A stretch of 52,793 nucleotides of DNA. Source: Candidatus Magasanikbacteria bacterium RIFOXYD2_FULL_41_14. GTDB taxonomy: Bacteria; Patescibacteriota; Patescibacteriia; Magasanikbacterales; GWA2-37-8. Below are positions 1-49,455 of this stretch, in pieces. Every line of letters begins with the position of its first letter. Positions within the stretch are counted from its first letter, which is position 1. The stretch is from NCBI GenBank assembly GCA_001784475.1, contig MFRE01000009.1:36585-89377 (forward strand), given 5' to 3'. Position numbers and translations under genes: made by a program. Under the pieces are notes generated by a model. The model had not been told where the DNA came from, did not search any database, and saw only the letters and a program-made list of their open reading frames with translations.

Positions 1-169
1 CTGTAACTTTGAATTTTGCCACTTGAAACTTTGGTCAACTCGCGGTAAAATATCGGTGGCTAATGTAGGCGTGTCTACGGACGCGTCTCGCCTTTGTAAA
101 AGACTGCTTGCATCGTCCTTGGGTGAACGAATCATAAATTCAAGTCGCCACGTATTTATACAGCAACCG

Positions 170-343
170 GCCGGTTGGCCGCTTGTCCTTGCCTCGGAAT
201 GGAAGATGCAAAAGAAGCCCGTTTGTCCTCGGCTGGCAACCTCGTCAATGTTGGCAACTTCGACGCGGACGGCGCGAATGTCAACAACGACAGTCCGGAC
301 AACTCCAATGACAATCTCGGCGTTTCTTTCGCCCGAAGTCTTT
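170..343 (+). repeat. DGR template repeat (TR)-like segment (boundaries approximate)
   Basis: It lies just upstream of, and co-oriented with, the DGR-type RT. Its reading frame is open only after the stop at 124-126. It reads ...NLVNVGNFDADGANVNNDSPDNSNDNLGVSFARS, with 8 AAY codons between 247 and 315. This resembles the C-terminal C-type-lectin/FGE-like variable region of DGR targets. It has no long upstream ORF, so it looks like a template rather than a VR. Confidence 0.6.
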
Positions 344-344
344 G

Positions 345-367
345 TCCCCCGATATTAAGTCGGGGGA
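345..367 (+). other. GC-rich hairpin at the 3' end of the TR-like segment, overlapping the avd stop codon
   Basis: The stem tcccccga (345-352) pairs perfectly with tcggggga (360-367) around a 7-nt loop, tattaag. Confidence 0.6.
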
Positions 368-744
368 TTTGTTTGTCCGCCGTTGGTTTTTTTAATCCAG
401 CCACCGAGCATCCGTCCGATTTCCACGAGCGCGGCTACCAAATTCAAATAGCTTTTTTCATTAATGGCACGGACATCAAAACAAAGGCGAATAATTGTTT
501 TGAGTATTTTTAGTTTAAGGTCAATTTTTTGCAATAATTCTAATCGGGCGGTGACGCGAGCGGCATTGGCGAAAAATAACATTTCTAAAATTTCAATAGT
601 CAGCCCCTCGCATTTTGCTCCCAGCGCGAAGCGGTCGCGTTTGGGCAGTCGCGTCGTTACGCCGTAAAGTTGTTTATAAAAATCATAGGTTTTATGGATA
701 ATAGAGATTTCCGTGCTATTGTCGCGGGGGGGGGTAGTAGTCAT
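355..744 (-). CDS. avd: Accessory variability determinant (Avd)-like four-helix-bundle protein
   Basis: The protein is 129 aa. The C-terminal VEIGRMLGGWIKKTNGGQ resembles the Bordetella phage BPP-1 Avd tail (..EVGRILGSWIARVNRKGQ.., recalled from memory). LPKRDRFALG and the heptad-like helices fit the four-helix-bundle / 23S-IVS protein family. It lies adjacent to the DGR RT. Confidence 0.8.
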   Translation of the reverse strand: MTTTPPRDNSTEISIIHKTYDFYKQLYGVTTRLPKRDRFALGAKCEGLTIEILEMLFFANAARVTARLELLQKIDLKLKILKTIIRLCFDVRAINEKSYLNLVAALVEIGRMLGGWIKKTNGGQTNPPT

Positions 745-1704
745 AATTTATTTGATAAAATTATTTCCTTGCCTAATTTATTCCACGCTTGGCGCGAATT
801 TAAACGCGGCAAAATGAATAAAAGCGATGTTCAAAATTTTGCGTTAAATTTGGAGGATAATTTGTTTGATTTACATACTGATTTGCAGTCGGGGAATTAT
901 CGGCATTCACCTTACACGGATTTTTTCGTACGCGACCCTAAATTAAGACATATTTTTAAAGCCACGGTGCGCGACCGAGTACTACATCAGGCGGTCGTGT
1001 CAGCGCTTGAGCCGATATTTGATAATGGTTTTATCGCTAATTCGTATTCGTCGCGTTTGGGCAAAGGCACACATCGGGCGATATCGTGTCTGCGAAAAAA
1101 GGCCTGGCGGTTATCAAAAAATAATACTCGGACAGTGTGGATTTTACATGGCGATATTCGCCGATATTTTGATTCCGTTGACCATGAGATATTGTTGCGA
1201 TTAATTGAACGAAAAGTCGGTGATACTAATGTTTTAAATTTACTTACGGAAATTATCGGCAGTTATTCTACTGCCCCCGGCAAGGGCATCCCGCTCGGCA
1301 ATGTTACCAGCCAGTTATTTTCTAATATTTATTTAGACGAGTTTGATCAGTTTATCACAAGACATCTGGGGATTCAAGATTATATCCGCTATGCCGACGA
1401 TTTTGTCGTTATTAGTCGTAGCCAAATTTTTTTGGAAAGTATGATAACGCTTACGCGTAATTTTTTGAGCGAAAAATTAAAATTGGTTTTACATCCGGAT
1501 AAAATTGTTTTGCGCCGTTGGCACAGCGGGGTGGATTTTTTAGGGTATGTATTGTTTCCGCACCATAATATTTTGCGGACTAAAACTAAATGGCGGATGT
1601 TTAACAGAATAAATTCCAAAAATTTTATTTCTTATAGTGGGATGTTGAGACATTGTCGGTCGGCGCGTTTGCGCGCCGATTTATTACGAACGGTTGATTT
1701 ATAA
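694..1704 (+). CDS. DGR-type reverse transcriptase
   Basis: Motifs seen: NLFDKIISLPNLFHAWREFKRGK, RDRVLHQAV, SYSSRLGKGTH, GIPLGNVTSQLFSNIYLDEFD (the DGR-specific [IL]GxxxSQ motif), the IRYADDFVVIS YxDD box, and GVDFLGYVLFP. The ATG at 694 is preferred over the TTG at 670 used in the ORF track. Confidence 0.9.
   Translation: MDNRDFRAIVAGGGSSHNLFDKIISLPNLFHAWREFKRGKMNKSDVQNFALNLEDNLFDLHTDLQSGNYRHSPYTDFFVRDPKLRHIFKATVRDRVLHQAVVSALEPIFDNGFIANSYSSRLGKGTHRAISCLRKKAWRLSKNNTRTVWILHGDIRRYFDSVDHEILLRLIERKVGDTNVLNLLTEIIGSYSTAPGKGIPLGNVTSQLFSNIYLDEFDQFITRHLGIQDYIRYADDFVVISRSQIFLESMITLTRNFLSEKLKLVLHPDKIVLRRWHSGVDFLGYVLFPHHNILRTKTKWRMFNRINSKNFISYSGMLRHCRSARLRADLLRTVDL
726..734. repeat. G9/C9 homopolymer inside the overlapping 5' ends of avd and the RT
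   Basis: Nine consecutive G residues, counted from the sequence. The count agrees with both translations: AGGGSS in the RT and TPPR in Avd. Confidence 0.95.
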
Positions 1705-1763
1705 TTTAGTTTAAGTTATAATTACTCTGTTGTTTGGTATTTTTATCTATTCGTTATCATCTT

Positions 1764-2306
1764 ATGCTTATTTCTCAACTAGAATCAATCCTATTTGTCG
1801 CCTCCAAACCTTTGGCCCTAAAAAAATTAGCCAAGGTTTTAAATGTTTCGGGCGAAGATGTGGCGACGGCTTTGGCTGATTTGCGCGCGAAACACAACAC
1901 ACCTGAATCCGGTATCACGATTATTGAAAATAACGATGAATATCAAATGGTGGCTAATCCTGATAACCAAACGGTAGCGGAAAATTTTATCAAGGCCGAA
2001 GTGTCGGGGGAATTAACCCGTCCGCAGTTGGAAACTTTGACCGTAATTTCGTATTGCGGGCCGATTACCAAGCCGGAATTGGAACAAATTCGTGGGGTGA
2101 ACTGTGCTTTGATTTTGCGAAATTTAATGATGCGTGGGTTAGTAAAAGAACAAGATAGTTCTACTAATTTATTACCGACTTACGAAGTGACGATGGATTA
2201 TTTGCGCCATTTGGGATTAAATGCGTTGACTGATTTACCAGATTACGCGACTTTGCATAATCATGAATTTGTAGCGACTGCCTTAGAAGTGAAAACAGAA
2301 AATTAA
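1764..2306 (+). CDS. scpB: Segregation and condensation protein B
   Basis: LESILFVASKPL...ITIIENNDEYQM...LTRPQLETLTVISYCGPITKPELEQIRGV is typical of ScpB winged-helix domains. The ATG at 1764 is preferred over the TTG at 1734. Confidence 0.85.
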   Translation: MLISQLESILFVASKPLALKKLAKVLNVSGEDVATALADLRAKHNTPESGITIIENNDEYQMVANPDNQTVAENFIKAEVSGELTRPQLETLTVISYCGPITKPELEQIRGVNCALILRNLMMRGLVKEQDSSTNLLPTYEVTMDYLRHLGLNALTDLPDYATLHNHEFVATALEVKTEN

Positions 2307-4896: not shown

Positions 4897-5727
4897 ATGC
4901 CGAGTAATTTAATAAAAGAGCAAAAAAATGATAGCGCTGTTTCTACTTGTTGTGGCCAGTCAACTGTTTGGGGATATGATTTTGGTAAGAAAATATTGTG
5001 GACTTTTGCTGGGGTACTATTGGTGTACGCGATTTTTTGGCTGGGGACAATGGTGCGCAACAATATTAGGCAGTATGATTACATTGGACTGTCGCCCAAG
5101 AACGAGCGGATGATTACAATCAACGGTTATGGCAAGGTTAATAGCAACAATGATATTGCTGTTACAACGATTGGTTATTCAAACACTGATAAGGATGTAT
5201 CCAAAGCGCAGGCAGATAATAAAATTGTAATGGACCAGGTTTTAGCGGAATTAAAAACTATGGGAGTAGCGGATAAAGATTTACAAAGCAATTACACTAT
5301 TTATCCGGATTATAATTATACCCAAGACAAAGGCCAAGTATTGCAGGGTTATCGGGTTTCCAACCAATTGAACGTAAAAATTCGCGACCTAGACAAAGTG
5401 AGCGCAGTTTTGGGTTTGGCCGGTAAATACGGTGCTACCGAAGTTTCAGGTTTGACATTTACAATTGATGATCCTGAGAATTTGAAAGATGAAGCCCGAA
5501 TCAAAGCTCTGGCCGATGCTAAGAGCAAGGCCTTGCAATTGGCGCAAACTTTAAATGTCCGTTTGGGTGGCGTAGTATCATTTTCCGAATGGGATGCCAC
5601 AAACGGTGGTCCTTATCCGGTTTACAGCGCAATGGGAGCGGAGAAAGGTGGCGGTGAGCCGGGAGTTGCTTCTGGGAGCCAGGATGTCGGTATGAATGTT
5701 AGTGTAACTTACGAGATTTTGCAGTAA
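4897..5727 (+). CDS. SIMPL/DUF541 domain protein with N-terminal TM anchor
   Basis: GYRVSNQLNVKIRDLDKVSAVL..., ARIKALADAKSKALQLA and the overall layout match the SIMPL (26 kDa periplasmic immunogenic protein) family. Confidence 0.7.
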   Translation: MPSNLIKEQKNDSAVSTCCGQSTVWGYDFGKKILWTFAGVLLVYAIFWLGTMVRNNIRQYDYIGLSPKNERMITINGYGKVNSNNDIAVTTIGYSNTDKDVSKAQADNKIVMDQVLAELKTMGVADKDLQSNYTIYPDYNYTQDKGQVLQGYRVSNQLNVKIRDLDKVSAVLGLAGKYGATEVSGLTFTIDDPENLKDEARIKALADAKSKALQLAQTLNVRLGGVVSFSEWDATNGGPYPVYSAMGAEKGGGEPGVASGSQDVGMNVSVTYEILQ

Positions 5728-5751
5728 GATCGCTATTTAAGTAGTTTTTTT

Positions 5752-5781
5752 AAAAATCCGCCAAAGTTGGCGGGTTTTTGG
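5752..5781 (+). terminator. Intrinsic terminator after the SIMPL gene
   Basis: The hairpin tccgcc-aaagtt-ggcggg is followed by ttttt. Confidence 0.7.
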
Positions 5782-5847
5782 TCTGTTTGTATGTCTTTGA
5801 ATTGGCTAAAATAAGCCAAAATAATATTTTATCCACAGGGGGGGGTC

Positions 5848-5876
5848 TTGACAAAACCCCTAAAATGTGCTATAAT
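5848..5876 (+). promoter_or_regulatory. Consensus sigma70-type promoter
   Basis: TTGACA (5848-5853), a 17-nt spacer, then TATAAT (5871-5876). A G8 tract lies at 5838-5845, 2 nt upstream of the -35 hexamer. Confidence 0.7.
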
Positions 5877-6003
5877 GGCCAGTTCTGAAAAAATGGAAAT
5901 TTATTTACATTTTTGAGGAACGCCGCCATTTCAAGCGCCACTTATAATGGCCAGTTCTGAAAAAATGGAAATTTATTTACATTTTTGAGGAACGCCGCCA
6001 TTT
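5871..6003 (+). repeat. Two identical 61-nt direct repeats with a 72-nt period
   Basis: 5871-5931 and 5943-6003 are both tataatggccagttctgaaaaaatggaaatttatttacatttttgaggaacgccgccattt. An 11-nt spacer separates them. Each unit can fold as an imperfect long hairpin (aatggcc..gttc..aaaaatg / cattttt..gaac..gccatt). Confidence 0.95.
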
Positions 6004-6436
6004 TGAATATATTTGTTCTTTGTAAAATTGGTGACTGGCGTGTCTTTTACTGGAAGCGTGTAAACGTTTCTAATAAAAGGCGCGTTAGTTGCCTAAAATC
6101 TCTGCGGGCACAGCCCGCGGAGTTAATCCCGAGCCTCTCTTAGGCTCGGGATAATGCGCCGAATCGCGGCGCTTTGGGGCCGGGGTTTATCCCCGGCATT
6201 GCAGGGGGCCACCCTCGGTAGGGTGGTTGCTGAGTCGCTCTGCAGAGCGACGAAAGTATGGGGACAGAAGGGCCCCCCACCCGAAAAATTTGCCAAGAGT
6301 CCGAACGCGCGTGATGCTCACGCGCGTTCGGGCGACGGAGGGGAGGTGTTGCTTGAGGTGCTGTTGCCTCATGTACACCCCCCTCCGCCCTCTTTCCTCC
6401 CATATATTTTAAAGCGCCTATAGGCGCCTTTTTTTA
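5884..6436 (+). ncRNA. Unassigned structured non-coding RNA locus (repeat units, GC-rich multi-hairpin core at about 6097-6400, terminator)
   Basis: There is no credible ORF. A consensus promoter lies upstream and an intrinsic terminator at the 3' end. The core is a GC-rich island in AT-rich DNA with at least 8 hairpins: 6100-6122, 6128-6150, 6156-6172, 6179-6197, 6209-6226, 6234-6251, 6301-6331 and 6331-6389. The 5' end is inferred from the promoter only. Confidence 0.5.
6414..6436 (+). terminator. Intrinsic terminator closing the non-coding locus
   Basis: The hairpin gcgcc-tata-ggcgc is followed by c and T7 (6429-6435). Confidence 0.8.
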
Positions 6437-6482
6437 TTTTCAAAAAGATGTTATAATACCTCAAACTTTATAATCATTAATT

Positions 6483-7730
6483 ATGAAAATTAAGCAAATT
6501 TTGGCTCGGGAAATTTTGGACTCACGCGGTAATCCTACAGTTGAAGCTAAAGTAATTTTGGTAAATGGCATAGTTGCGGTCGCAAAAGCGCCATCGGGCG
6601 CATCTACTGGCTCACACGAGGCACGTGAACTCCGCGATGGTGGTAAGCGTTATGGTGGTAAAGGCGTTTTGTGGGCTGTAAAAAATGTCAATTCTATTAT
6701 TGCCAAGAAATTGGTTGGTTTTGATGTGGAAGATTTGGTCGCTTTGGATCAAATGATGATAAATCTGGATGGCACTAAAAATAAATCTAATTTGGGCGCA
6801 AATGCCACGACCGCGGTATCAATGGCCTTGGCCCGCGTTGGCGCGGCTGCGAATCGCCAGCCACTTTATTTATATTTACGCAAAACTTTTGGTTTGAAAG
6901 AAAAAGAGTATCGTTTGCCCACGCCGATGATGAATATTTTAAATGGGGGACGACATGCGGACAACGGTCTTTCGGTGCAGGAATTTATGATTGTGCCTAA
7001 GAATAAACTTTTTCGGGAGCAAGTACGCATGGGTTCACAGGTATTTCATGCTTTAGAAAATATTTTGGCGCAGAAGGGATACTCAGTTGCTGTTGGCGAC
7101 GAAGGTGGATTTGCTCCGCAGTTATTAAATAATGAGCGCGCTTTGCAGGTAATTGTTGAAGCGATTAAATATACTGGCTGGGTGCCGGGTAAGCAAATAT
7201 TTTTAGGAGTTGATGTCGCCTCTTCTGAATTTTATCATAAAGATAGTTATTATTTTGTCAGCAAAAAACAGGGCTGGCGCGCGGATAAAATGATTACCAC
7301 TTATGCCACTTGGCTTAAAAAATACCCATTAATTTTGATTGAGGACGGTTTAGCGGAAGATGATTGGGCAAATTGGCAGATTATGACTAAAGAGTTGGGT
7401 AAAAAATCACTGCTTATAGGTGATGATTTATTTACCACTAATGTTAATCGTTTAGAGCGGGGGGTAAAAGAAAAAGTAGCTAATGCGATTTTAATTAAAC
7501 CAAATCAGATTGGTACTTTGACTGAAACAATGCAGACGATTAATTTGGCCAAGAAGTCTGGGTATCAAGTGGTAATATCACATCGTAGCGGGGAGACCGC
7601 CGACACCTTTATTGCAGATTTAGCCGTTGCTGTTAATGCCGACTTTATCAAAACCGGTTCGCTGTCGCGATCCGAACGAGTGGAAAAATACAATCGGTTG
7701 ATGGAAATTGAATTGGAACTGGGACGGTAA
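6483..7730 (+). CDS. eno: Enolase
   Basis: The N-terminus ILAREILDSRGNPTVEAKV, plus SHRSGETAD and IKPNQIGTLTET. Confidence 0.97.
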   Translation: MKIKQILAREILDSRGNPTVEAKVILVNGIVAVAKAPSGASTGSHEARELRDGGKRYGGKGVLWAVKNVNSIIAKKLVGFDVEDLVALDQMMINLDGTKNKSNLGANATTAVSMALARVGAAANRQPLYLYLRKTFGLKEKEYRLPTPMMNILNGGRHADNGLSVQEFMIVPKNKLFREQVRMGSQVFHALENILAQKGYSVAVGDEGGFAPQLLNNERALQVIVEAIKYTGWVPGKQIFLGVDVASSEFYHKDSYYFVSKKQGWRADKMITTYATWLKKYPLILIEDGLAEDDWANWQIMTKELGKKSLLIGDDLFTTNVNRLERGVKEKVANAILIKPNQIGTLTETMQTINLAKKSGYQVVISHRSGETADTFIADLAVAVNADFIKTGSLSRSERVEKYNRLMEIELELGR

Positions 7731-7747
7731 ATTATATTTAAATTATT

Positions 7748-9349
7748 ATGATACGAGAAAAGAACATTCCTATTAAGAAAAAGCGTGGAAGAGTAAGTAA
7801 AATCGATCGTTCGCCAGTCGCTTTGATTATTTTAGATGGTTTTGGTTTAGGTAAAGTTGATGATCCTGGCAATGCCATTACTCCCACAACTGCTCCCAAC
7901 ATTTTTTCTTATTTTAAAAAATACGCTCATTCCACTTTAAAAACTTACGGGCAATATGCCGGTTTATTTATCGGGCAAGTAGGTAATTCCGAGGCTGGGC
8001 ATTTAAATATTGGCGCCGGCCGGATTGTTAAACAAGATTTAGTGATAATTTCCGAAGCGATTCATAACGGTACTTTTTTTAAGAACACTGCTTTTAAAGA
8101 TGCTTTGTTTCACACCAAAAAACATAATTCTGCCGTTCATTTAATGGGGCTTTTGACAGATGGTAATAGCGCGCACGCTTATCCAGAACATTTATACGCG
8201 CTGTTGGAGCTGTGTCGCGATTTTGGACAAAAAAAAGTTTATTTGCATTTGTTTACCGATGGTCGTGATTCTTCACCACATAGTGCTTTGCAGTTTTTGC
8301 GCGTTTTGCGCACACATATGTTGGAAAACGAAAAAGTGGCTACGATTATGGGGCGGTTTTACGGCATGGATCGAAATAAAATTTGGAGTCGTACCAAAAT
8401 GGCGTATGAGGCCATTACCGCTGGTAAGGGGAATTTTGCCAAGTCGGCCGAAGAGGCATTAAGTCAGGCGTATAACCGTGGTGAAACCGATGAATATGTA
8501 ATGCCAACTATTATTACAAAATCTGGCAAACCCATTGCCACCATTCAAGACAATGACGCGGTTATTTTTTTTAACGCGCGTAGCGATCGCGCCCGCGAAA
8601 TAACCAAATCATTAGTTCAAGAAGATTTTACTCAAAAAAATCCTGGTTCATTTAATCGTCGCCATAACCCCAAGAATCTTCGGTTTGTGGCTTTAACTGA
8701 TTTTGGGCCGGATTTACCGGGCGTATTAACGGCTTTCCCTAGTTCTGATATTAAGAATTGTTTGCCGCTCGCGGTGGGCGAAAAATATCGGCAATTATAT
8801 ATTTCCGAAACTGAAAAATTTGCCCATGTTACCTATTTTATTAATGGCGGTTTTGCCGATCCTTTAGATGGCGAAGAAAGAGAACTAGTTAAATCGGAAC
8901 CAGTGCGTTCGTATGCTGATAAACCGGAAATGAGTTGTCGCCTTATTAGCCGTAAAATTTGTAATTATTTAAAAAAAGATAAATATAATTTTATTGTGGT
9001 TAATTTTCCCAATGCCGATATGGTGGGGCATACTGGAAACTTGGACGCCGCCAAAAAAGCAGTAAAAATAATGGATACTGAAGTGGGTAGAGTAGTGGAA
9101 ATGATTTTGAAAAAAAATGGGGTGGCTTTGATTACCGCCGACCATGGCAACGCTGATGTTATGATCAACTTTGATACCAAAGAAATGATGACGGAACACA
9201 CGGAAAATTCAGTGCCCTGTATTTTAATTTCTAAAAAGTGTATGTTGAAACGTTTAAAAAATGGTATTTTAGCTGATGTCGCACCGACACTATTAAAAAT
9301 TATGGGCATTAAAAAACCCAAAGAAATGACGGGAAAATCGTTGTGTTAA
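7748..9349 (+). CDS. gpmI: 2,3-bisphosphoglycerate-independent phosphoglycerate mutase, paralogue 1
   Basis: LIILDGFG, GNSEAGHLNIGAGR (catalytic Ser), NADMVGHTG and TADHGNAD. It carries a basic N-terminal extension of about 20 aa. Confidence 0.9.
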   Translation: MIREKNIPIKKKRGRVSKIDRSPVALIILDGFGLGKVDDPGNAITPTTAPNIFSYFKKYAHSTLKTYGQYAGLFIGQVGNSEAGHLNIGAGRIVKQDLVIISEAIHNGTFFKNTAFKDALFHTKKHNSAVHLMGLLTDGNSAHAYPEHLYALLELCRDFGQKKVYLHLFTDGRDSSPHSALQFLRVLRTHMLENEKVATIMGRFYGMDRNKIWSRTKMAYEAITAGKGNFAKSAEEALSQAYNRGETDEYVMPTIITKSGKPIATIQDNDAVIFFNARSDRAREITKSLVQEDFTQKNPGSFNRRHNPKNLRFVALTDFGPDLPGVLTAFPSSDIKNCLPLAVGEKYRQLYISETEKFAHVTYFINGGFADPLDGEERELVKSEPVRSYADKPEMSCRLISRKICNYLKKDKYNFIVVNFPNADMVGHTGNLDAAKKAVKIMDTEVGRVVEMILKKNGVALITADHGNADVMINFDTKEMMTEHTENSVPCILISKKCMLKRLKNGILADVAPTLLKIMGIKKPKEMTGKSLC

Positions 9350-9429
9350 TATATATTTTTTAATTCTTAGTCGCAAAATAGCGGGTGAAAATGAAATAGA
9401 AATTTAAAATTTAAAATCTGCAATTTAGT

Positions 9430-11022
9430 ATGTCTTATAAACCGGTAGTGTTAACAATTTTTGATGGTTTGGGTGTGGCGCCGCCAGGTGAAGGCAACGC
9501 CGTGACGCTGGCTGTTATGAAAAACTTTAACAAATTTATCAAAGAGTATCCAGTGATGACTTTATTTGCCGCTGGCAATGAAGTCGGTCTTATGTTTGGT
9601 GAAATGGGCAACTCTGAAGTTGGCCATTTGAATATTGGCGCTGGCCGAGTGTATTATCAATCATGCCCGCGTATTAATCAAACCATCAGTGATGGTTCTT
9701 TTTTTACCAATCCGGCGCTTTTGAAAGCAATTATTCAAGCTAAAGAGAAAAAAACTAATTTGCATTTAATTGGTTTATTGTCGGCCGGCAATATTCACGC
9801 GAGTGAATCACATCTGTATGCTTTATTGGATTTATGTCGCCAGTACAAATTATCTTCCACTTTAAATAATCGAGTTTTTGTACATGTAATTCTGGACGGG
9901 CGCGATGCTCCCTATAACTCTGGAGCTGATTTTGTGCGGCGTTTGCAAGATAAGATGAATAGTTTGAAAGTCGGCAAGATTGCTTCTTTATCCGGTCGTT
10001 ATTATGCCATGGACCGTGACAATCGGTGGGATCGTGTAGAAAAGGCCTATCGCGCGATGGCTCTGGGGGAATCTGATCGCATTTCCGACGATCCAATTAA
10101 AGCAATTTTGGATTCGTATGAAAAAAAAGTTTTTGATGAAGAATTTATTCCGACTGTCATAACGAAGCGAGGCGCGCCAGTGGCCACTTTTAAAGAGGGG
10201 GATGCTGCCATTTTTTTTAACTTTCGGCCTGACCGAGCGCGCCAACTAACTAAGGCCTTTGTGCTTCCTGGTTTTGATAAATTTGAACGTCCTTATTTAC
10301 GCGATTTGTGTTTTGTAACCATGTCTGAATATGAAAAAGATTTACCTGTGTCCGGTGTTGCTTTCAATCCTTTGGTAGTAGTTAACAGTTTGGCCGAAAC
10401 TATTAGTAAGGCGGGTAAAAAACAATTTCATTTGGCCGAAACTGAAAAATATGCGCATGTTACTTATTTTTTAAATGGGGCAGTTGAGGACGCGTTCCCC
10501 GGGGAGGACCGATCACTTATCCCTTCTCCCCAAGTATCCAGTTATAACGAAGCGCCCGAGATGTCGGCGGCCTTAGTGGCTAAGGAGGCGGCGAAAGCTA
10601 TAGATAGTGGCAAATATGATTTTGTAGTGGTGAATTTGGCCAATCCTGATATGGTGGGGCATACTGGTGATTTAGCCGCGACTGTGAGGGGTTGCGAAGC
10701 GGCTGATAAGGCATTTGGCAATATTGTCGATCATACCTTAGCCGTGGGAGGCGTAGTAGTAATGACAGCCGATCATGGTAATTCCGAGGAAGTAATAAAT
10801 TTTCAAACTGGCGATATTGATAAAGAGCATACCACTAATCCGGTACCTTTACTTATTATTGGCAAGGATTTTCAAGGCCAAGCTGGGCCGGCTGGTGATC
10901 CGCCAGAAGGAGATTTGTCTTTAATGCATCCGGTAGGAGTTTTGGCTGATATCGCGCCAACAGTTTTAAAATTAATGGGCGTGGAGAAGCCGGGGGAGAT
11001 GACGGGAACGTCACTTATTTAA
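9430..11022 (+). CDS. gpmI: 2,3-bisphosphoglycerate-independent phosphoglycerate mutase, paralogue 2
   Basis: LTIFDGLG, GNSEVGHLNIGAGR, NPDMVGHTG and TADHGNSE. Confidence 0.92.
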   Translation: MSYKPVVLTIFDGLGVAPPGEGNAVTLAVMKNFNKFIKEYPVMTLFAAGNEVGLMFGEMGNSEVGHLNIGAGRVYYQSCPRINQTISDGSFFTNPALLKAIIQAKEKKTNLHLIGLLSAGNIHASESHLYALLDLCRQYKLSSTLNNRVFVHVILDGRDAPYNSGADFVRRLQDKMNSLKVGKIASLSGRYYAMDRDNRWDRVEKAYRAMALGESDRISDDPIKAILDSYEKKVFDEEFIPTVITKRGAPVATFKEGDAAIFFNFRPDRARQLTKAFVLPGFDKFERPYLRDLCFVTMSEYEKDLPVSGVAFNPLVVVNSLAETISKAGKKQFHLAETEKYAHVTYFLNGAVEDAFPGEDRSLIPSPQVSSYNEAPEMSAALVAKEAAKAIDSGKYDFVVVNLANPDMVGHTGDLAATVRGCEAADKAFGNIVDHTLAVGGVVVMTADHGNSEEVINFQTGDIDKEHTTNPVPLLIIGKDFQGQAGPAGDPPEGDLSLMHPVGVLADIAPTVLKLMGVEKPGEMTGTSLI

Positions 11023-32207: not shown

Positions 32208-32213
32208 ATAAGA

Positions 32214-32243
32214 TTTATGTCCGTACACGTGTACGGACATAAA
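32214..32243. repeat. Perfect 30-nt palindrome, copy 1 of 3 (core ATGTCCGTACACGTGTACGGACAT)
   Basis: tttatgtccgtacacgtgtacggacataaa, 7 nt after the stop of the upstream gene. Confidence 0.95.
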
Positions 32244-32256
32244 ATTTAGTAAAATT

Positions 32257-41695: not shown

Positions 41696-42916
41696 GTGTT
41701 ACTCGCCATCGAAGCCAGCCACGCTGTTAAAACACCCCGCACGGGTGTGGAAGAAGCGTGTTGGCAGATGATTAAAAATTTATCCGACTTAGGCGGGCCC
41801 GCCTCGGGCGGAAAGTCAACTCTACCTGCGGACACGCGGGTTATTTTGTATAGTCATAAAATGCCTGATGACAAAAGTATGTCCGTACACGTGTACGGAC
41901 ATAAGTTTAATGAATTGCCTACAAATTGGGAGTGGAAAATTTTAAATTGGCCAGTAAAAAAACTTTGGAGTCAATTTCGTCTGTCATACGAATTATTTAA
42001 AAATCCGCCGGATGTTTTTTTTGCAGTTGGGCAATTATTACCATTTTTTTTACCTAAAAAAATAAAAGTAATTACTTTTGTCCACGACAGTGCGTTTGAA
42101 GCCGAACCGAATGCGTATAGTTTATTGGGAAAAATTTATTTAAAACTGATGAACCGCCGGATTGTGGCTCGCAGTGATAAAATTATTACATCCACGGAAT
42201 TTAATAAAAAAGAATTGCTAAAATATTATCAGGTTGCGTCGGAAAAAGTTGTGGTAGTTCCGCTTGCTTATGATGCCAATGTTTTTTGCATGGATTTGTC
42301 ATCGCGAGAAGCACGGCGACGAAGCAATCTATCATTTGATCAACAGAGAGATTGTTGCACTTCGCTCGCAATGATAAATAAACCATATTTTATTTATCTT
42401 GGCCGTTTGGAGGAAAAGAAAAATACTGCTTTGCTCGTGCGCGCTTTTGATCAAACACGTGCTAGTGGAGTTGACTGCCAGTTGGTATTGGTAGGCAAAT
42501 TTGGTAAACTTTCAGCAGATGTTCGCACCGCCTTGGTAGATAGTCCATATAAAAAAGACATCATTGTCCCGGGTTATGTTAAGTCAGAAGATTTACCTGG
42601 CCTAATGTGCGGGGCGCTCGCTCTGGTGTTTCCTTCCCGCTATGAGGGTTTTGGTATGCCGATTTTGGAAAGTATGGCTTGTGGCACGCCAGTAATTGTC
42701 AGTGATATTCCGGCCTTGCGGGAGGTGGGTGGATCAGCTATAACCTATATTTGTCCTAAAATTGCTGATTTGGCGCTGGCAATGGCCCAAGCAGCGAAAG
42801 ATCCAGTTTGGCGTGAAAATCATCGCCTAGCCGGCTTAGAACGGGTAAAAAGTTACTCCTGGACTAAAACAGCTGAAATCTTGGGCAGAGAGATTGCCAA
42901 AACCCGTTTATTTTGA
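41696..42916 (+). CDS. Family 1 (GT4) glycosyltransferase carrying three in-frame repeat-element-like segments
   Basis: PYFIYLGRLEEKKN and FPSRYEGFGMPILESMACGTPVI (EX7E region). It has a GTG start. The N-domain is about 30-40 aa longer than usual. Confidence 0.85.
   Translation: MLLAIEASHAVKTPRTGVEEACWQMIKNLSDLGGPASGGKSTLPADTRVILYSHKMPDDKSMSVHVYGHKFNELPTNWEWKILNWPVKKLWSQFRLSYELFKNPPDVFFAVGQLLPFFLPKKIKVITFVHDSAFEAEPNAYSLLGKIYLKLMNRRIVARSDKIITSTEFNKKELLKYYQVASEKVVVVPLAYDANVFCMDLSSREARRRSNLSFDQQRDCCTSLAMINKPYFIYLGRLEEKKNTALLVRAFDQTRASGVDCQLVLVGKFGKLSADVRTALVDSPYKKDIIVPGYVKSEDLPGLMCGALALVFPSRYEGFGMPILESMACGTPVIVSDIPALREVGGSAITYICPKIADLALAMAQAAKDPVWRENHRLAGLERVKSYSWTKTAEILGREIAKTRLF
41791..41812. 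repeat. GC-rich palindromic unit (GGCGGGCCCGCCTCGGGCGG) inside the GT4 CDS
   Basis: It is related to cccgccttgggcggg at 11035-11049 and translates to GGPASGG. Confidence 0.7.
41878..41903. repeat. Perfect 26-nt palindrome, copy 2 of 3, in-frame inside the GT4 CDS
   Basis: tatgtccgtacacgtgtacggacata translates to (S)MSVHVYGH(K). Confidence 0.95.
42298..42375. repeat. ~78-bp imperfect inverted-repeat element in-frame inside the GT4 CDS
   Basis: The left arm is gtcatcgcgagaagc..gaagcaatct and the right arm is agagattg..cttcgctcgcaatgat. The termini are of the same GTCAT(T/C)GCGA(C/G) / GAAGCAATCT family as 11024-11140. It translates to SSREARRRSNLSFDQQRDCCTSLAMI. Confidence 0.7.
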
Positions 42917-48087: not shown

Positions 48088-49365
48088 ATGCACGAAATAA
48101 AAAAACTAAAAAACGGTTTACAATACATTTACATTCCAAACTCCGGTACGAGCGCCGTGACGGTTTTGCTTTTGTTTCCAATTGGTTCGCGCTATGAAAC
48201 GCGACCAATTTCCGGCATCTCGCATTTTTTAGAACACATGTTGTTTAAGGGCACAAAAAAACGTCCGGACTACCTGGCCATATCGCGCGAGTTAGACGCG
48301 GCCGGAGCGGATTATAACGCTTTTACTTATAAGGATTATACAGGTTATTATGTTAAAATCGGGGCATCAATGGTAGGCAAGGCGTTTGATATAATTTCGG
48401 ATATTTCATTTAATTCCACGATGCCGGCTAAAGAAGTGGAGAAAGAAAAGGGTGTGATAGTGGAAGAGCTGCGAATGTATGAAGATAGCCCGATGCACGC
48501 CATTGAACTCGTATTTGACCGTTTAATGTTTCCTAACCACCCGCTGGGATGGGATGTTGGTGGTAATGAAAAGACAGTGCGGGCGATTACTCGCGCACAA
48601 CTTTTAAATTATTATCACGATCACTATAGTCCGCAAAAGGCGGTTTTAGTGGTCGCCGGAAATTTAAGCAAAGAAGATTTGGAAAAAAATCTGGAAAAAT
48701 TTGCCTTGGCTACTTCCAAAAATCCGGCCGAACCGAAATATTTACCGTTTAAATTTAAAGATAATTTGTCGCTGTCTGAGCGGGTGGCCGTCCAGCCCAG
48801 AAAAATTGATCAAGTGCAAATGATAATGGGTTTCCACGGGGTAGCTCATAGTGATAAACGGAGCTATGCGGCCGCGGTATTATTAACAATTTTGGGCGGA
48901 GGGATGAGCTCGCGTTTATTTGTGGAAGTGCGCGAAAAGCGTGGTTTGGCCTATATGGTGCGTGCTGGCTCTTGGCCTTATCGCGATGTTGGGTCGGTTT
49001 ATGTGCAGGCCGGTTTGGACCCGAAACGTTTACCAGCGGCTTTGAGAACCATTAAAGTGGAACTTAAAAAAATTGCCACGAAAGCTGTAAGCAAAAAAGA
49101 ACTGGCTGATGCCAAAACCAGTTTAGTGGGCAGAATGGATTTGGCATTGGAGGATTCCTCGGTGATGGCTGAACGCGCGGCCAAGCAATTTATTTTCTTG
49201 GGTGACGCTCTCACTGCCGCCGAAGTCGCACGGCGTGTGAATGAAGTGACGGCCAAAGATGTGCTCGCTTTAGCTAAAGAGTTGTTTAAGGTAAAAGAAA
49301 TGCACTTGGCAGTAATTGGGCCAGTTAAAAAAGAAGATGTTTTGAAAATGTTAAAAAATAAGTAA
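48088..49365 (+). CDS. M16 family (pitrilysin-like) zinc peptidase
   Basis: GISHFLEHMLFKGT (HxxEH) and the downstream EE..R pattern. Confidence 0.88.
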   Translation: MHEIKKLKNGLQYIYIPNSGTSAVTVLLLFPIGSRYETRPISGISHFLEHMLFKGTKKRPDYLAISRELDAAGADYNAFTYKDYTGYYVKIGASMVGKAFDIISDISFNSTMPAKEVEKEKGVIVEELRMYEDSPMHAIELVFDRLMFPNHPLGWDVGGNEKTVRAITRAQLLNYYHDHYSPQKAVLVVAGNLSKEDLEKNLEKFALATSKNPAEPKYLPFKFKDNLSLSERVAVQPRKIDQVQMIMGFHGVAHSDKRSYAAAVLLTILGGGMSSRLFVEVREKRGLAYMVRAGSWPYRDVGSVYVQAGLDPKRLPAALRTIKVELKKIATKAVSKKELADAKTSLVGRMDLALEDSSVMAERAAKQFIFLGDALTAAEVARRVNEVTAKDVLALAKELFKVKEMHLAVIGPVKKEDVLKMLKNK

Positions 49366-49367
49366 AT

Positions 49368-49397
49368 TTTATGTCCGTACATGTGTACGGACATAAA
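49368..49397. repeat. 30-nt palindrome, copy 3 of 3 (one central C-to-T difference)
   Basis: tttatgtccgtacaTgtgtacggacataaa, 3 nt after the M16 peptidase stop. Confidence 0.95.
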
Positions 49398-49455
49398 GTT
49401 AAGCGACAAAATTATATTGGTTTTGACCATTGGGAAGCGATTAAATTATTAAAAA

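Follow-up and report, generated by a model that had tools for sequence, protein, structure and literature searches.

A G9 homopolymer shared by the 5' coding ends of avd and the reverse transcriptase gene: a candidate phase-variation switch for the DGRs of Patescibacteria

In this study, we analyzed a stretch of 52,793 nucleotides from Candidatus Magasanikbacteria bacterium RIFOXYD2_FULL_41_14 (hereafter the window; contig MFRE01000009.1) and found that the reverse transcriptase (RT) gene of a DGR and the inverted avd gene beside it share a single run of nine G residues, which lies in the coding frames of both genes, recurs at the same junction in many related loci and differs in length among near-identical genomes. 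The best reading of these observations, which we hold with moderate confidence and without read, expression or activity data, is a slipped-strand contingency switch on DGR activity. Since the run has been kept in dozens of ultra-small relatives and changes its length naturally, it is probably a random on/off switch.

The DGR cassette and the position of the G9 tract

The cassette is that of a complete DGR, arranged as target(VR)-TR-avd(inverted)-RT. The features of the window on which the analysis relies are as follows.

1..6, plus strand: 3' end of the DGR target gene, namely its final codons CTG and TAA; the VR is just upstream of the window start
216..341, plus strand: template repeat (TR) of the DGR, which aligns to the VR of L001 and L003
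344..368, plus strand: GC-rich hairpin (C5/G5 stem) that directly follows the TR and overlaps with the stop codon of avd
355..744, minus strand: avd (accessory variability determinant) coding sequence, 129 aa from ATG 744
694..1704, plus strand: DGR reverse transcriptase coding sequence, 336 aa from ATG 694, with TTG 670 as an alternative upstream start
694..744, both strands: head-to-head overlap of RT and avd, 51 nt of 5' coding ends in the same codon register
713..721, plus strand: GTG 713 and TTG 719, alternative RT starts that are in frame at G10 or G7
726..734, both strands: homopolymer, G9 on the plus and C9 on the minus strand, the proposed slipped-strand switch

The marks of a DGR were all present, namely the adenine pattern between TR and VR, an RT beside the TR, Avd and a continuing diversification of the VR. 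The RT product matched RVT_1 at 4e-24, which is a general RT profile and not specific to DGRs, and its conserved N-terminal motif LFDKIISLPNLFHAW begins at residue 19. The identical 336-aa product is called in two other contigs of this organism (L001 and L002), and RT homologues number in the thousands, the closest of them coming from Patescibacteria. Avd matched NF033474 (DivGenRetAVD) with 88.4 bits against a cut-off of 80 over residues 14-118, and PF22296 (bAvd) at 5e-18; residues 1-13 form an N-terminal extension before this conserved core, and the tract codes for T4-R7 of the extension. In the longer contigs L001 and L003 of the same organism, a 590-aa target gene is located immediately upstream of the window, and the TR aligns with the 3' end (VR) of this gene. 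The mismatches between TR and VR fall almost all at TR adenines, with two non-A differences in L003, and 19 substitutions separate the VRs of the two near-identical assemblies.

Several further observations were made around the cassette. The hairpin at 344-368 had a fold z-score of -3.25 and a terminator-like match. Position 228, inside the TR, is C in the window and A in L003. The window and the independent JGI contig L002 (1-18) both start at the 3' end of the VR, which suggests that assembly breaks occur where the heterogeneity made by the DGR begins. In addition, the cassette (target, TR, avd and RT), together with a preceding 82-aa ORF, sits between scpA and scpB, which are usually neighbours (L001 2339-7613; window 1734-2306).

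The letters at 726-734 are GGGGGGGGG. The initial annotation had described this G9 as lying inside the divergent 5' overlap of avd and RT, in RT codons 11-14 and Avd codons 4-7, and the sequence confirmed the position as well as the codon placement. Specifically, the tract codons are A11(GCG)-G12-G13-G14(GGT) in RT, counted from ATG 694, and T4(ACC)-P5-P6-R7(CGC) in avd, counted from ATG 744 on the minus strand, with codon boundaries that are common to both strands (GCG GGG GGG GGT / ACC CCC CCC CGC). The conserved cores of both proteins lie downstream of the tract in their own reading direction. The distance between the tract and the VR is about 0.5-0.9 kb. An interrupted, in-frame version of the run can be written with synonymous codons as GGAGGTGGA. 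The G+C content of the window is 40.2%, no other G or C homopolymer in it is longer, and the 52.8 kb hold only two G/C runs of at least 7, the second being a G8 at 5838-5845; under a first-order Markov model, 0.17 G runs of at least 9 were expected in the window. A contingency locus should carry, inside a coding sequence or promoter, a homopolymer of at least 7 that is rare elsewhere in the genome, and this is met both in the window and in relatives, where only nine G/C runs of at least 7 were found away from the junction in 485 kb.

Elsewhere in the window, the G8 at 5838-5845 lies 2 nt upstream of a perfect promoter, TTGACA(5848-5853)-17-TATAAT(5871-5876), and from the -10 box onward there is a 72-bp tandem repeat (5871-5942 / 5943-6003), which is present as a single copy in L003. 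No Rfam match was obtained within 5600-6600, and the GC-rich part at 6100-6400 looks structured. A palindromic element, TATGTCCGTACACGTGTACGGACATA, occurs in three copies (32209-32249, 41871-41911 and 49363-49403), apparently at gene ends, and the copies look like shared terminator hairpins. Two paralogous ORFs (533 and 530 aa) lie in tandem at 7748-11022, and their repeated segments are 70-81% identical; the 533-aa ORF is annotated as phosphoglycerate mutase in L003 (Metalloenzyme / iPGM_N domains).

Length polymorphism and conservation of the tract

Contigs of this organism carried three tract lengths, with G8 in L175 (JGI 3300025152), G9 in the window, L001 (ENA ERZ28563792) and L002 (JGI 3300025088), and G10 in L003 (ENA ERZ28563808) and L004 (Logan SRR2090174); L001 and L003 belong to one BioSample, SAMN03842452. 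Over the tract region, L001 and L002 match the window exactly, at G9. These variants of the same species came from exact-protein look-ups only; when the RT was used to scan metagenomes, no contig of the species was recovered (best match 52% identity). The protein search yielded a 100% identical RT of 330 aa that starts with MLLSRGGGSS, as predicted for a G10 tract, and the contigs coding for it (L003 and L004) do carry G10 in their DNA. The same cluster also includes a 296-aa RT from L175, a strain that is somewhat more divergent and has G8. Over 13 kb, L001 and L003 differ at 19 sites of the VR, one site of the TR, two SNPs, one copy of the 72-bp repeat and the tract. SNP haplotype A has G9 in the window and L001 and G10 in L004, while SNP haplotype B has G9 in L002 and G10 in L003; G9 and G10 are therefore found on both SNP backgrounds, and the tract change is recurrent. 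An A9 run in the window region common to the assemblies showed no variation, and the G8 at 5838-5845 is G9 in L002. The G8/G9/G10 heterogeneity that the initial annotation had called for was thus seen, between assemblies and not in read pile-ups, and repeat-number polymorphism among near-identical genomes, another mark of contingency loci, is met at the level of assemblies only. In two lineages, assemblies S001 and S002 of one BioSample disagree (G9 vs G10 in this organism and G10 vs G12 in another lineage), which could reflect either a mixture within the sample or a technical effect of the individual runs.

Length polymorphism was also observed in three further lineages, which, besides the tract, vary over 3-4 kb only at few scattered SNPs and in the VR. 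In a Parcubacteria lineage, seven contigs had G9 and seven had G10, with no fixed differences between the two groups. Contigs of a Wildermuthbacteria-like lineage showed G9 (five), G10 (four), G11 (two) and G12 (one, beside a scaffold gap); the other variable columns in the 4.1 kb compared (27; 11 contigs) were all in the VR, and a single VR haplotype was common to G9, G10 and G11 contigs. In the third lineage, six contigs had G10 and two had G11, and in a ninth contig a T>G change beside a G11 makes the run G12. The same cassette holds another run, a G8, which was invariant in 9/9 contigs in which the junction tract varied and serves as an internal control; this G8 is located at 508-515 of L209, between the target gene and the TR, and the junction tract there ranges from G10 to G12. 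Two control lineages were constant, with G9 in 10/10 and 9/9 independent assemblies, and G9 in 19/19 control assemblies means that these pipelines do not scatter G9 calls at random.

Protein data agreed with the DNA. Clusters at 90% identity contained RT N-terminal variants of the kind expected from tract changes; one of them holds MGLENWVGGGG, MGWGGG, MGWGGGG and MNNWGLKIGLGGG, which represent all three upstream frames, and pairs of GGG and GGGG were present in several clusters. In L183-L192 (the cluster of P0070 and P0157), the tract is constant at G9 and the RT calls are long or short; the length of the call seems tied to the codon upstream of the tract, an inferred TTG start vs TCG, and this change is possibly a point-mutation route to on/off.

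The initial annotation had named absence of the tract from related DGR loci as a refutation. A pure run of G7-G12 was present at the avd/RT junction in 44 of the 80 species-level Patescibacteria relatives (species representatives from Patescibacteria MAGs; RT 44-57% identical), which, with the three length-polymorphic lineages, supports conservation of the tract in related DGRs. The run lengths were G7 (three), G8 (four), G9 (13), G10 (15), G11 (four) and G12 (five), and the run lies 56-102 nt upstream of a conserved Trp codon. A 45th junction run, a G25 at the contig end of L049, is probably an artefact. Consistently at the protein level, GGG was very common a few residues before the LF.KIISLENLF motif in the best 120 RT homologues, which were 49-65% identical; P0001, with 100% identity, is the G10 allele of this organism itself and stands outside that range. 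Where Avd was detected, avd and RT lay on opposite strands in almost every locus of the clade.

The loci without a tract mostly belong to one clade, with the RT N-terminus MKIYKNIFEKIIS (the MKIY clade), and they have core-proximal start codons, back to back or overlapping. Tract-bearing loci, in contrast, lack core-proximal starts and have starts only beyond the tract. This contrast means that the tract occupies the point where both starts meet in the tract-less relatives. In the RT tree, tract-bearing loci are spread across everything outside the MKIY clade, with interrupted runs scattered among them.

Other G runs and junction arrangements were noted in the relatives. In the tract-less relatives, the back-to-back avd and RT starts, which in L024 (2981-2985) overlap as the palindrome CATG, leave no intergenic room for promoters. 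The Peribacteria loci L024 (2617-2627, G11) and L053 (2621-2630, G10), which have no junction tract, carry a run just 3' of the TR; a pyrimidine-rich stretch precedes the run, which may form the 3' arm of a hairpin after the TR, similar to that at 344-368 of the window. Two less closely related DGRs encode avd and RT on one strand; in these, L104 (3004-3010, G7) and L111 (887-895, G9), the run falls in Gly codons at the C-terminus of Avd, about 10 nt ahead of the RT start, which is a different junction context. Start codons directly adjoining the tract (TTG-G...) were, by inspection, about as frequent as chance would give.

Predicted reading frames and alternative explanations

No in-frame ATG, GTG or TTG exists between the tract and the conserved core, for RT or for avd, and translation of either protein must therefore begin beyond the tract. 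True starts on the core side, which would have refuted the switch, can thus be set aside for canonical start codons. When the tract was rebuilt at other lengths in silico, RT and avd were both in frame at G9 and G12; at G10 or G7, avd had no start and RT was open from GTG 713 or TTG 719; at G8 or G11, neither gene had a canonical start. A length change therefore alters the frame relative to the start codon, as in contingency loci, at least in silico. The initial annotation had expected any one-G change to shift both genes, which stands for the loss of a G (G8) and only in part for the gain, since G10 removes the avd start and leaves RT open from an alternative start. The predicted G10 product of RT (330 aa, MLLSRGGGSS...) is present in public assemblies as P0001, and a truncated call from the G8 contig, P0123, was found among public gene calls.

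We propose that G9/C9 is a hypermutable simple-sequence repeat within the N-terminal coding extensions of avd and RT, where slipped-strand mispairing during replication would gain or lose Gs and thereby move both genes out of register with the starts on the far side of the tract. The predicted states would be both genes on at G9 and G12, RT only, from GTG 713, at G10, and both off at G8 and G11. In the Bordetella phage system, Avd and RT are both required for DGR cDNA synthesis. Because both are needed, the tract would be a heritable, reversible and stochastic switch of mutagenic retrohoming. On/off control of protein expression or of retrohoming is an inference. The same holds for the loss of Avd and RT at out-of-frame lengths, for frequent and reversible switching, of which the sharing of SNP backgrounds and of a VR haplotype by several tract lengths is merely suggestive, and for selection maintaining the tract as a switch.

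The on/off calls assume canonical start codons and are permissive; for half the loci, the RT has a possible start in two of three frames, and some lineages have a core-proximal start for one of the two genes, which would leave only its partner under the control of the tract. Gene calls at the locus vary, with RTs of 336, 330, 311 and 296 aa and Avd fragments of 75 aa. Exact look-ups of the 129-aa Avd and of the 344-aa RT (from TTG 670) gave no match, in the case of Avd because gene callers truncate it at the overlap. The short form of RT was rejected as a marker of the off state, since gene callers shorten RT after calling Avd first (L165 has G9).

Canonical starts were used to score 44 loci, of which 41 were genome representatives and two were metagenome contigs, the last being the window. 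The predicted states were both on in 20, both off in 13, RT only in six and avd only in five, and a both-on length lay within one G of the observed length in 41 of the 44. Across species there was no excess of the on state (both on in 20/44 vs 17.7 expected under random phase), and the RT-core/Avd-core registers were distributed as 14/16/16. Random phase fits a drifting switch that is often off, and it fits a tract of irrelevant length equally well; nor did this test tell a translated tract from an untranslated one. Among loci that keep the ATG in the Avd-core register (MNNRN-type RT start), RT was in frame in 5/6 where the tract was lost or interrupted and in 10/37 where it was intact (Fisher p = 0.015; small numbers), which is the outcome expected of a tract that toggles while intact and, once lost, leaves the frame fixed on. 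A symmetric design, in which each ATG is antisense to a His codon of the other gene, holds in the window and is not general, the registers being random.

The random phase is also what would be expected under transcriptional slippage, in which RNA polymerase stutters on G9-G12/C9-C12 and yields mixed mRNAs, some of them in frame. The tract would then lower or tune expression in a graded manner and would not be a heritable switch. Slippage at A/T runs is known from Thermus dnaX, IS elements and Shigella mxiE, and tract lengths of 9-12 are within the range known for such runs. However, to our knowledge efficient slippage in the elongation phase is documented mainly for A/T runs and not for G/C, the difference between tract-lost and intact loci in the in-frame fraction suggests that the DNA frame matters, and slippage would still let DNA length alter the in-frame fraction. 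We consider this explanation unlikely, though it is the rival that survives best.

A G run with a frame-independent role, whose length variation is merely tolerated, is in our view quite unlikely. It might act as a promoter spacer, as protein-binding or structural DNA, or as part of a long plus-strand RNA that contains the TR. Non-coding G runs do exist in related cassettes (after the TR in L024 and L053, and between VR and TR in L209), and in the window the tract falls in the 17-nt spacer of a weak plus-strand match, TTGTCG-17-CATAAT (719-747). This match reaches only 9/12, such sites were found three times vs 1.4 by chance, the flanking hexamers are by inspection not conserved in relatives, and the resulting transcript would miss the conserved RT N-terminus. 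A promoter-spacer repeat switch of the Neisseria opc/porA or Bordetella fim type was rejected on the same ground, the match being weak and not conserved. As to structure, folding around the tract was no better than that of shuffled sequence (z = -0.71 and +0.32 for the two strands), and no Rfam family matched the tract region. Furthermore, a frame-independent role leaves unexplained why far-side starts are unique to tract-bearing loci.

It is very improbable that the run is a coding by-product, in which Gly-Gly-Gly of RT opposite Pro-Pro of Avd in a shared register accidentally forces GGG/CCC. In the window the registers do coincide, GGG/CCC is the sole codon pair for Gly opposite Pro, and GGG is very common in the RT N-termini of relatives, but run lengths from 7 to 12 are not confined to multiples of three, the core registers are random, out-of-frame loci are numerous, the motif is missing from an entire clade of relatives that look functional, and relatives with interrupted runs retain only GG or G.G; mixed codons for the Gly/Pro residues in relatives are already contradicted. 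Lastly, sequencing or assembly error at a tract that is stable in vivo deserves very little credence, for although G homopolymers are error-prone, S001 and S002 disagree, L049 ends in G25 and L173 has a scaffold gap at the tract, the alleles were reproduced across independent assemblies, samples and pipelines (e.g., seven G9 and seven G10), the control lineages agreed in 19/19 assemblies, and a G8 on the same contigs was invariant where tract lengths differed by up to 3 nt.

Relation to known systems and implications

The slipped-strand switch resembles several known systems in part. In the hifA/hifB fimbrial switch of Haemophilus influenzae, said to have been described by van Ham et al. in 1993, TA repeats reportedly lie in a shared divergent promoter. 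There, as here, one simple-sequence repeat between divergent genes controls both; the hif repeat, a dinucleotide placed between -35 and -10, affects transcription, whereas the present one is a mononucleotide in overlapping coding ends and would act on the translation frame. The DGR of Bordetella phage BPP-1 (mtd-avd-TR-brt) has the same components, with a 3' VR in the target, differences at TR adenines, Avd and RT; in contrast, avd is inverted here, head-to-head with RT, and the TR is upstream of the inverted avd. Programmed transcriptional slippage sites are similar in that a homopolymer of at least 9 stands in a coding region where frame restoration would matter, but they are A/T runs at one fixed DNA length, whereas this run is G/C and its DNA length varies.

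The contingency loci of Campylobacter jejuni (also those of Neisseria, Haemophilus and Helicobacter) share with the junction a run of about nine G/C near the 5' end of a coding sequence, an AT-rich genome in which such runs are otherwise rare, length polymorphism by at least one and frame-dependent states. One study gives nine as the modal length of the C. jejuni polyG tracts, which matches the G9/G10 mode of this junction (PMC3401435). Unlike in C. jejuni, the gated genes here are a targeted hypermutation machinery rather than surface-structure or restriction-modification genes, one tract lies in two coding sequences of opposite strands, and the hosts are uncultured Patescibacteria. Phasevarions, i.e., phase-variable DNA methyltransferases, are also alike in that a repeat switches an enzyme with a global or second-order effect (PMC5909438); their output is a methylation-dependent regulon, whereas the output of the DGR switch would be an ability to diversify a target protein.

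Surveys and a review of DGRs (PMC5758913, PMC8144416 and PMC8867640) contain no mention of homopolymers or phase variation, and the combination of DGR with either was unreported in the searchable full-text literature, which did not cover Paul et al. (2017, Nat Microbiol), the principal work on DGRs of the CPR. The initial annotation was not aware of homopolymer phase variation being described as a DGR control device, in line with this search. Apparently unreported, therefore, are the gating of a DGR, a single tract in two overlapping divergent coding sequences, and the conservation of such a tract across a large Patescibacteria clade.

The regulation of DGRs is largely unknown, and surveys equate an intact cassette with an active one. 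For the Patescibacteria DGR clade as a whole, the wider proposal is an ancestral and selected tract that makes the DGR a phase-variable hypermutation engine with three heritable states; we regard this proposal as evenly balanced between right and wrong. One homopolymer at avd/RT would give the three states, so that most cells would hold the VR frozen while a stochastic minority diversifies it. Annotation is also affected, as gene callers give differing RT and Avd products for essentially one locus. If the proposal is true, a mutable tract sets the activity of many CPR/Patescibacteria DGRs, and cassettes with frameshifted-looking or truncated RT or Avd would be switched off and not dead. In addition, DGR activity would be heterogeneous in populations and readable from tract length in metagenomes. 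A stochastic switch over a targeted mutator would limit the cost of mutagenesis and let a useful variant freeze, and such a phase-variable hypermutation engine would be a second-order switch of evolvability.
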